A stretch of DNA of 24,000 bases from Desulfonatronovibrio hydrogenovorans DSM 9292 (lineage in GTDB: Bacteria > Desulfobacterota > Desulfovibrionia > Desulfovibrionales > Desulfonatronovibrionaceae): positions 69,616 to 93,615 of the forward strand of contig NZ_JMKT01000016.1 of assembly GCF_000686525.1 (NCBI RefSeq). The letters run 5' to 3'. The notes beneath the pieces were generated by a model. The model searched no databases, was not told the origin of the DNA, and saw nothing but the letters and a program-made list of their open reading frames with translations. The position numbers were made by a program, and so were the translations under genes. This document shows, piece by piece, positions 7,047-8,306 of the stretch (positions within the stretch are counted from its first letter, which is position 1; each line of letters opens with the position of its first letter).

Positions 7047-8306
7047 TCATCCCACGATCAGCCTGAACCAGGCCTCGCCCATCCAGGCCAGCACAGCCAG
7101 CCCAAGCATTACTCCCTGGACCGGCATAAAAAGCCGCATCTCCTGGTCCACCCCAGACAGGGACGTAAAGGGAGTTGAGCCGGTGTAGTGCATGGCAAAC
7201 CAGGAAGCAAAAGCTGCACTACCGGCCATTGCAGCAAAGCCTTCTGCCAGGGAGCCTGCCAGGACAAGGGTCAGGATTGCCCCCACCGACATTCCAGCAG
7301 CAATCCCTTTAGCTGCAAAGGATCTAAAGGGAATCCAGGGCAAAAGAGCTGGAACAATAAAAGTACCGGTCAAGAAGCCGATCATAACCACTGTAAAAGC
7401 ACTCAGGCCGGACAACAGAACACCCGAAAATGAAAATCCGCCCGGACCAAGGGCTGCCAGGATCAGACAGACCACAAAGGCCCAGAACAGAAATTTTCTG
7501 GCCCCATAAACCTCAACCAGGGCCACTTCCAGTCTTTGGTTAAGGGGAAAAACCACCTCCCGCATACCTGGACCAGCTTGCATTCCTTTATTAATGAACT
7601 CTGGCAGATCTTCTATTCTCAGGGGGCCGAAAACTCCCTTGAACCCGCACATTTTTTTCAACTTATGGGCTGCAACCGATGGAGCAGCCAGCTGGGGAAT
7701 AATAAGTGTCCGGTGTTTGACGATTTTGTCCAGTAAGGACTTATGGACCTGCCTGGCCACCTCCTGGGTGTTGAAACTCTTTTTACCAGCTGCGCACCAG
7801 ACATTGATTCCATAGGTTTCAACCACCAGGATCCAGAACGAACCACCACCAAGTTGTTTACGCAGGATATCAAAGGTCAGCTTGTAGTTACAGGTAACCA
7901 GGACCGGGCTGTCCTGGTCAGGCTGACCCAGAGCGTAAAGACCCGGACAAATGCGGTAGTTGTCCCGAATGATCCCGGTTCGAGCACCAAGCCCACCTAT
8001 CTTGTCTTTCCAGGACAATATATTCCTGACTCGGGGAACATTTCCAAGAGGAGTCTGTACCCATCCCTCAACAAAATGCCAGGCCTTGAGACCGGCCCTC
8101 TCACCTGCCGCCTCCGGCGGCAGAATGTTTTCCGGACCTCAGCAAGGTGCTCTGTCCTCTATGTCCGGACCACAGGGCTCTACTTCCTTAAGTGTCTTCA
8201 ACCCTGAACATGGACATTCAGCATCCAGGCCGGATGCATCCGGCTGACCAGGGGTGCATCCGGCCTGCTCCAAGGACCTGTTTGATATGTTTGTGTTTCC
8301 AGGCAT
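7047..8306 (-). CDS. hgcA: HgcA, corrinoid mercury methyltransferase, with an uncertain 5' end. The ORF from a canonical start is 7047-8018. The proposed full length to ATG 8306 requires recoding of TGA at 8139-8141.
   Basis: The cap-helix motif GINVWCAAGK lies at codons 7782-7805, with the Cys codon at 7794-7796. A C-terminal multi-helix membrane domain follows. hgcB is directly downstream. The frame stays open and homologous-looking (WHFVEGWVQTPLGNVPRV) upstream of the TTG at 8018. ATG 8306 gives 55 further codons before a single in-frame TGA. Confidence in the identity is high. Confidence in the 5' extension is about 0.5. Confidence 0.85.
8105..8123 (-). promoter_or_regulatory. Candidate bacterial SECIS-like hairpin downstream of the in-frame UGA in hgcA
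   Basis: On the mRNA the sequence reads UGA, then 15 nt, then CUGCCGCC-GGA-GGCGGCAG. This is a perfect 8-bp stem, or 7 bp with a CGGAG loop. The loop begins with G and starts 23 nt after the UGA. That fits the remembered bSECIS geometry of a UGA-to-apical-loop spacing of roughly 16-37 nt with a G in the loop. Confidence 0.4.

Follow-up and report, generated by a model that had tools for sequence, protein, structure and literature searches.

A probable selenocysteine codon followed by a conserved hairpin in hgcA of Desulfonatronovibrio hydrogenovorans, a further example of the known selenoprotein form of HgcA

HgcA makes methylmercury, a neurotoxin that accumulates in food webs. Haft and Gwadz reported in 2022 that most HgcA proteins are selenoproteins, in which a PCUGP motif, with U for selenocysteine (Sec), lies N-terminal to the predicted start; the motif was perfectly conserved in all 20 genes that they examined, including those of ND132 (DND132_1056) and GSU1440, and the Sec machinery was encoded in all 20 species (bioRxiv 10.1101/2022.07.06.499078). 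The same study found Sec at residue 73 in 6.4% of HgcB proteins, proposed a soft-metal role for the Cys-Sec (CU) pair together with the Cys-Cys (CC) pair of HgcB, and inspected candidates for the Sec insertion sequence (SECIS) by hand, the detail for HgcA not being given (bioRxiv 10.1101/2022.07.06.499078). A 2026 review of selenoproteomes also lists HgcA (NF040863) with the CU motif. Here we analyze the hgcA gene in a stretch of 24,000 nucleotides from Desulfonatronovibrio hydrogenovorans DSM 9292 (contig NZ_JMKT01000016.1, positions 69,616 to 93,615), referred to as the window, in which an in-frame UGA directly follows a Cys codon and precedes a SECIS-like hairpin. The context of this UGA, DRAPC-U-GPEN, contains the P-C-U-G-P pentapeptide and is an exact match to the motif of Haft and Gwadz, whose work reportedly appeared later in J Bacteriol in 2023. 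A preliminary description, made from the sequence of the window, had held that a Cys-Sec HgcA would be new biology. That claim does not stand, as such proteins were published in 2022 and are covered by the 2026 review; the gene in the window belongs to the already known Sec type of HgcA, correctly rediscovered.

On the minus strand, ATG 8306-8304 opens a run of 55 codons, MPGNTNISNRSLEQAGCTPGQPDASGLDAECPCSGLKTLKEVEPCGPDIEDRAPC (MPGNT...DRAPC), that ends at TGA 8141-8139. The frame from 8138 to 8019 is free of stops and of ATG, GTG and TTG, with CTG, ATT and ATA present, and TTG 8018 then opens a 323-residue open reading frame (ORF) terminated by TGA 7049-7047. The preliminary description had laid out the gene in this way, down to the 40 codons between TGA and TTG that hold neither a stop nor one of these three starts, and its coordinates all match the sequence in the minus-strand frame. 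It had also reasoned that TGA is a normal stop here, and a reassigned genetic code is indeed excluded because hgcA itself terminates with TGA. The pattern TGY-TGA-GGN-CCN has a single occurrence in the window, which is the CU site of hgcA. The identity of the gene is clear from the protein read through the UGA, which scores 400.9 bits against the NCBIfam profile HgcA_corrinoid (NF040863; cut-off, 275). The 325 positions of the profile align to residues 90-413, leaving the CU site outside its coverage. Pfam CdhD matches the product as well, and the cap-helix motif N(V/I)WCA(A/G)GK, which carries the Co-ligand Cys, reads GINVWCAAGK here, with N168-K175 invariant in 76 sequences.

Taken with the comparative data that follow, these features make it very probable that the UGA is decoded as Sec and that hgcA of D. 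hydrogenovorans is a selenoprotein gene. Translation would start 5' of the UGA, with ATG 8306 as the simplest choice and TTG 8201 as a possible one, and the ribosome would pass a Cys-rich flexible leader before reaching the UGA. The hairpin at 8124-8104 would there recruit SelB with Sec-tRNA(Sec), and Sec would presumably be inserted at codon 56. Continued translation into the corrinoid-binding and transmembrane domains would yield an HgcA of ~419 amino acids, in which a flexibly tethered P-C-U-G-P would precede the first folded beta-strand by ~25 residues. We infer that insertion is SelB dependent.

Conservation of the site extends well beyond the window. In-frame C-TGA-GP is found in four GTDB genomes from three genera (L004-L007), namely two Desulfonatronovibrio metagenome-assembled genomes (MAGs), one Desulfovermiculus genome and one Desulfonatronospira genome, and it is also kept in 11 metagenome loci or contigs with 63-72% identity (including L027-L036). 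Close relatives from three MAGs retain the TGA, and dozens of distant HgcA loci conserve C-TGA. The consensus of orthologues with 61-72% identity is (P)C-TGA-G-P-(E/R/K)-N-x-L-(P/A)-P-E-x-x-G-E; an orthologue alignment had been proposed as a check, and it keeps Cys-TGA-Gly-Pro in frame. Across the near clade every sequence encodes Gly and Pro after the TGA, yet all four bases occur at the third positions of these codons, and none of the potential starts 3' of the TGA is conserved. The fifth codon after the UGA varies (ATT, ATC, GTT, GAA, AAA or GTG), and the sixth, equivalent to CTG 8123, is CTT in L007. Invariant amino acids with free third positions, together with the lack of a conserved downstream start, therefore indicate that the ribosome reads the frame across the TGA.

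To relate the UGA to Cys-containing homologues, we collected 87 distinct HgcA loci regardless of the codon at the CU site, which is TGA in 61 and Cys in 26. Distant HgcA proteins of ~400 amino acids are continuous through the site and carry ..(E/D)xPCCG(P/S)P.. or CCP at the aligned columns (P0053-P0120). The first residue of the pair, C55, is at least 90% conserved, and U56 of the window shares its column with the second Cys of these CCG or CCP motifs. The preliminary description had pointed to CCG-type motifs in the N termini of other HgcA proteins, and CC does lie at the same column in the Cys-type homologues. Some Sec/Cys pairs are close (L090 and L103 versus L079 and L098). In one pair, 'DKPPC-TGA-GPPTSAGGGEI' versus 'DKPPCCGPPVSTGGGEI', TGA versus TGY is the difference in a near-identical context.

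These patterns bear on the possibility that the UGA is a genuine stop, in which case the 55-codon ORF would be separate or meaningless and HgcA would start further on at a rare initiation codon, CTG 8123 or ATT 8126, or at TTG 8018. TGA is a normal stop in the D. hydrogenovorans genome, and public annotations of 323 amino acids (from the TTG) and 358 amino acids (with the CTG as Met) exist. However, these annotations agree with no start codon that is conserved 3' of the UGA, given the variable fifth codon and the CTT of L007. Database orthologues begin at whichever start follows the TGA ('MLPPEAAGE..' or 'VAGEKAG..'); gene callers place the starts of orthologues just past the UGA, which gives these entries their length of ~354 amino acids and lends the stop some support of its own. 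Conservation of the Cys before the UGA and of the Gly and Pro after it as amino acids, with variation at synonymous sites, is expected only if the region is translated; the Cys-type homologues are continuous across it, and the restriction of the hairpin described below to TGA-type loci would be left unexplained. We consider a genuine stop very unlikely. The TTG 8018 start is probably an annotation artefact of the UGA being taken as a stop, and the 323- and 358-residue database versions are truncations that result from treating it as one.

Structural context for the rejected TTG start comes from an AlphaFold model of a Cys-type homologue (P0054; mean predicted local distance difference test [pLDDT] score, 86), which provides context only and is not a model of the Sec protein. 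The far N terminus of P0054 is disordered (pLDDT <50), and its CC motif falls in a coil modelled with intermediate confidence (mean of 66 over a 10-residue block). The equivalents of the codons that follow the UGA (FVEGW.. and G.VPRV) form two beta-strands with pLDDT >90, and a start at TTG 8018 appears implausible because these two strands would be deleted. In the alignment of 76 HgcA sequences F78, V79, G88, V90 and P91 are invariant or nearly so, which confirms as conserved the W/F-V..TP.G.VPRV segment that the preliminary description had placed ahead of the corrinoid domain.

The hairpin CUGCCGCC-GGA-GGCGGCAG lies at 8123-8105, 15 nucleotides past the UGA and exactly where the preliminary description had placed it, G-starting loop included; a U.G pair extends the stem to 9 bp (8124-8104), and the spacer from UGA to loop is 23 nucleotides. 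Folding had been suggested as a check, and it returned the 9-bp stem with its GGA loop; the 60 nucleotides from the UGA fold at -29.4 kcal/mol with z = -3.06 (2 of 200 shuffles were equally stable), but a wider 81-nucleotide fold gives only z = -1.08. The fold-energy statistic depends on the frame chosen, and it is the comparative evidence that carries the case. Perfect 8-bp hairpins with loops of 3 to 8 nucleotides number seven in the window (~5 sites), against 1.6 in shuffles. A stem of 6 bp or more without interruption, whose loop starts 15-26 nucleotides after the codon at the CU site, is present in 51 of the 61 TGA-type loci and in none of the 26 Cys-type loci, which answers the earlier suggestion that hairpin and TGA should occur together. 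With SECIS-like criteria based on minimum free energy (MFE) the counts are 52/62 and 4/26, respectively. Of the TGA-type loci whose stem has 5 bp or more, 54 of 57 place a G at loop position 1 or 2. The TGA-type loci display more than 15 distinct stems, which are wholly different between clades (CUGCCGCC/GGCGGCAG, CUCCGCC/GGCGGAG, GAGUCCG/CGGAUUC, GUCCA/UGGAC and GCGCCGC/GCGGCGC). Different stems at the same place support the structure, although this is not a column-by-column covariation test.

Within the near clade, 95% of stem cells are paired in the 13 sequences. In the six hairpin codons third-position identity is 0.91. The flanks give 0.42, or 0.49 when only those flanking codons are counted whose amino acid is conserved. 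The hairpin is under RNA-level constraint at its synonymous sites. A possible lower helix around the hairpin appears both in the MFE structure of the D. hydrogenovorans site and in the RNAalifold consensus of 13 orthologues. Its pairs are present in 11-13 of the 13, without covariation and with all positions coding constrained. Scans of the whole window with Rfam, at gathering thresholds, and with ARAGORN gave no hit of any kind, neither to a SECIS family nor to tRNA-Sec.

The hairpin evidence also bears on whether the UGA is read through without Sec, by a near-cognate Trp- or Cys-tRNA with the hairpin as a generic stimulator, or whether termination and re-initiation there yield two polypeptides. 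The data here do not distinguish Sec from another residue, and the Sec machinery was not located in the window. However, the position of the hairpin, its G-rich loop and its spacing from the UGA (16-24 nucleotides to the loop) fit bacterial SECIS elements in dozens of lineages with unrelated stems, and Sec/Cys homologue pairs are a standard selenoprotein signature. The 20 other species with Sec-type HgcA are all reported to have the Sec machinery (bioRxiv 10.1101/2022.07.06.499078), and we regard a mechanism other than Sec insertion as highly improbable. An error of sequencing or assembly at the TGA, or a pseudogene status of hgcA, for which nothing speaks beyond the in-frame stop itself, is refuted, with a negligible probability left to it, by the 501 bases around the TGA (7900-8400), which are identical across assemblies from three independent Sequence Read Archive (SRA) sequencing runs and show the same TGA at 8139-8141, where a read check had been suggested, by the same TGA in close relatives and distant orthologues, and by a downstream gene that is intact and strongly conserved.

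Several observations weigh against Sec decoding. Covariation within the near clade is thin: L007 is the one sequence with double changes, of which it has two, and the score of the real alignment is matched in 7 of 500 shuffles. The hairpin is without the bulged U and the GGUC loop of the Escherichia coli fdhF SECIS. Such bulged-U and GGUC-type loop details are specific to Enterobacteria and are not known to be general. At the 5' end, ATG 8306 falls within the -10 box of a strong promoter-like site, which makes the start codon uncertain, and L007 has no canonical start between a second, upstream in-frame TGA and the CU site. Neither selA, selB, selC and selD nor other selenoprotein genes were found within the 24-kb window. 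No experimental evidence of Sec in any HgcA was found in the literature searched, in which a search for Desulfonatronovibrio with selenocysteine returned nothing. A 2024 PNAS paper says of HgcA homologues that they "may be selenoproteins" and no more, and it reports that E. coli lysates expressing ND132 HgcAB methylate Hg. If the cloned ND132 gene began at the annotated start, as we infer, the CU extension would not be strictly needed for catalysis.

The start codon deserves separate comment. Candidates 5' of the UGA are ATG 8306, TTG 8273 and TTG 8201. The preliminary description had chosen ATG 8306, which is indeed the first start after the upstream stop, but its position in a promoter-like -10 box makes this part of the claim less certain. 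The promoter-like block of 30 nucleotides is 100% conserved in four close relatives (L107, L109, L111 and L112), even where the sequence further upstream is unrelated. The block may act as a promoter, in which case the mRNA would lack ATG 8306, or it may instead be a conserved ribosome-binding site, start or operator region. With a promoter here, translation would begin at TTG 8201, with a leader of 20 residues before Sec, a length comparable to that of the published minimal extensions of ND132 and GSU1440. Indels in the leader of close relatives, a deletion of 6 nucleotides and an insertion of 24 nucleotides, preserve the frame and count against this alternative.

Leader sequence and length vary among orthologues, a Pfam search with the 55-residue leader found nothing, and the N-terminal extension is probably disordered. 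The leader is fast evolving in close relatives (L107 and L109-L112), with substitutions that are mostly nonsynonymous, and all five Cys residues and the frame are kept. The second in-frame TGA of L007, a locus from a Desulfonatronovibrio sp. MAG (PWPY01000192.1), is at ~2830-2832 (ATG..ACG TGC TCC TGA AGG), 57 codons 5' of the Cys-Sec codons. It is not followed by a SECIS-like hairpin (z = -0.17) and is seen in this one sequence; it may mark a second Sec codon (CxU), a noncanonical start or decay of the leader.

PCUGP is not the only Sec context. One clade reads C-TGA-PPKAPPGA (L042, L043, L047 and L051, as well as L045 and L063), in a more N-terminal CCPP-type repeat, and at least L045 and L047 retain a CC nearer the domain, as seen in 'SCCPPKAPPATA' of Geoalkalibacter (P0065). 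Loci from Clostridium and Hathewaya (L019-L021 and L024) have (A/S)C-TGA-TPK, a Syntrophomonas MAG has NC-TGA-VIE, and a Clostridia MAG has SC-TGA-DV (L015 and L026). Each of these contexts has its own downstream hairpin. Two Cys-type loci (TGT; L090 and L103) fall within the clade 'KPPC-U-GPPTSAGGGEI' and carry a degraded hairpin remnant, CUCCAC-UGG-CGGCGGAG, in what looks like a recent conversion of Sec to Cys. A TAG after Cys at ~1490-1530 of L067 was considered as a recoding candidate and rejected; it terminates an upstream MarR-like gene in the ordinary way, and AAGGAG-N9-ATG comes after it. The HgcA of L067 is without the CU extension.

We tentatively suggest that the CU pair, from its flexible tether, binds a soft metal, Hg(II), or hands it on, in concert with the C-terminal CC of HgcB, a proposal that we hold at somewhat less than even odds. 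A fuller scenario is more speculative still: as a usable start is absent from the UGA up to where the corrinoid domain forms its first folded strands, HgcA synthesis here and in the ~70% of sampled loci that are of the TGA type might depend on selenium, with selenium supply and SelB capacity gating Hg methylation at the level of translation, and the tethered Cys-Sec pair might be first to bind Hg(II) and then hand it to the methyl-corrinoid. Selenium gating and Hg(II) hand-off by Cys-Sec are extensions of the published bioinformatic proposal.

If most HgcA proteins need Sec, many HgcA sequences in databases are truncated, as here to 323 or 358 amino acids, and recombinant constructs made from them are without the Cys-Sec site. 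Selenium availability could, if this is true, limit or tune methylation, and the Cys-Sec pair would be an obvious candidate for the Hg(II) delivery step. Implications for truncation, selenium and Hg(II) delivery were already raised in 2022; the window adds one clear example and comparative support for a TGA-linked SECIS hairpin. Coordinates of the features are collected in Table 1.

Table 1. Features of the hgcAB region, in window coordinates
Feature	Position	Strand	Remarks
hgcB, 99-residue ferredoxin	6740..7039	-	Two [4Fe-4S] motifs; Cys73 (GVGC); C-terminal ..SCCP (C97-C98-P99)
Full-length hgcA through the UGA (probable)	7047..8306	-	419 residues (55 + Sec + 363) plus stop TGA 7049-7047; continuous except for a single TGA
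TTG, start in the database 323-residue annotation (P0001)	8016..8018	-	
40 codons 3' of the UGA	8019..8138	-	Encode GPENILPPEAAGERAGLKAWHFVEGWVQTPLGNVPRVRNI; canonical start absent
Possible lower helix around the hairpin	8087..8141	-	UGAG (8141-8138):CUCA (8090-8087); CC (8135-8134):GG (8093-8092)
SECIS-like apical hairpin	8104..8124	-	8 Watson-Crick pairs and 1 U.G pair; loop GGA 8115-8113; encodes LPPEAAG
CTG, start in the older 358-residue annotation (P0121)	8121..8123	-	Read as Met; first codon of the hairpin
TGC-TGA, probable Cys55-Sec56 (CU) codons in A-P-C-U-G-P	8139..8144	-	Read sets, orthologues and published PCUGP motif
Cys-rich N-terminal extension 5' of the UGA	8142..8306	-	GCTPG, ECPCSG, EPCGP and APC motifs
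Promoter-like site, ATGACA-16 nt-TG-TATAAT	8305..8332	-	Sigma-70-like; 11/12 consensus positions; -10 box overlaps ATG 8306

The partner gene, hgcB, begins 7 nucleotides past the hgcA stop, and its ORF (6740-7039) scores 120.6 bits against NCBIfam HgcB_ferredoxin (NF040864; cut-off, 99). The product is identical to WP_028575525.1 of Desulfonatronovibrio hydrogenovorans. It is the Cys73 form, with Cys at the residue reported as Sec in 6.4% of HgcB proteins, and it ends in CCP rather than CC. The regions flanking hgcAB (106-6666 and 8373-10398) encode on one side a small c-type cytochrome (6325-6600, minus strand), an 822-residue multihaem cytochrome with MtrC/MtrF-like domains (3768-6236, plus strand) and an FeS protein with a cytochrome b (2187-3702, plus strand). 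On the other side, and on the same strand as hgcAB, lie genes for a MOT1-family sulfate/molybdate transporter and a TauE-family permease; in close relatives TauE is downstream of hgcAB instead.

Bacterial SECIS elements, in the bSECISearch model, have a loop 16-37 nucleotides from the UGA with a G in the first loop positions. Like the SECIS of E. coli fdhF, the element here is directly 3' of the UGA and within the coding sequence, with an early loop G and a spacing in the accepted range, and its UGA possibly takes part in a lower helix. It differs in its loop of only 3 nucleotides (GGA), in having neither a bulged U nor a GGUC loop and in its lack of an Rfam match, and its SECIS role remains putative.

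Vicinal Cys-Sec pairs are found in other proteins with a link to mercury. The CU selenoproteins of the SAO locus (SaoL, SaoB and SaoC) and the CU-type MerT share with Sec-type HgcA the vicinal pair, a mercury or organometallic connection and a proposed soft-metal binding role, whereas folds and positions are unrelated, with CU near the C terminus in SaoL and at the extreme C terminus in SaoC. The window contains no SAO genes. Mammalian thioredoxin reductase carries GCUG, a vicinal Cys-Sec pair on a flexible tail and a high-affinity Hg target. The likeness to the CU of HgcA, a vicinal Cys-Sec pair on a flexible segment, is an analogy only, as the reductase is eukaryotic, relies on a SECIS in the 3' untranslated region, has its motif at the C terminus, uses it in a redox relay and is not homologous to HgcA. 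Closer to hand is the C-terminal Cys-Cys pair of HgcB, which in ND132 (C94/C95) is required for methylation and has been proposed to deliver Hg(II) (2024 PNAS paper). There, too, two adjacent soft ligands sit at a flexible terminus, that of the partner protein (C97-C98-P99 in the window), but both are Cys and they belong to the other subunit; some HgcB proteins have Sec at residue 73, where that of the window has Cys.

The closest system remains the Sec-type HgcA of Haft and Gwadz. As in that group, the gene in the window has one in-frame UGA 5' of the formerly predicted start, a Cys directly before the Sec and the identical P-C-U-G-P, the extended protein falls among lengths of ~363-420 amino acids, and Cys-type homologues have CC at the site. 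It differs in that the portion of the Haft and Gwadz text available to us does not name the D. hydrogenovorans gene, and its copies in the sequence collection searched are still truncated. The clade of the window has a longer spacer (U-GPENILPPEAAGE) and a hairpin sequence of its own, and the loci collected here also show C-U-PPK, AC-U-TPK, NC-U-VIE and SC-U-DV. The contrast in hairpins between TGA- and Cys-type loci, the synonymous-site test and the non-PCUGP contexts are modest additions to what is known of Sec-type HgcA rather than a new finding.

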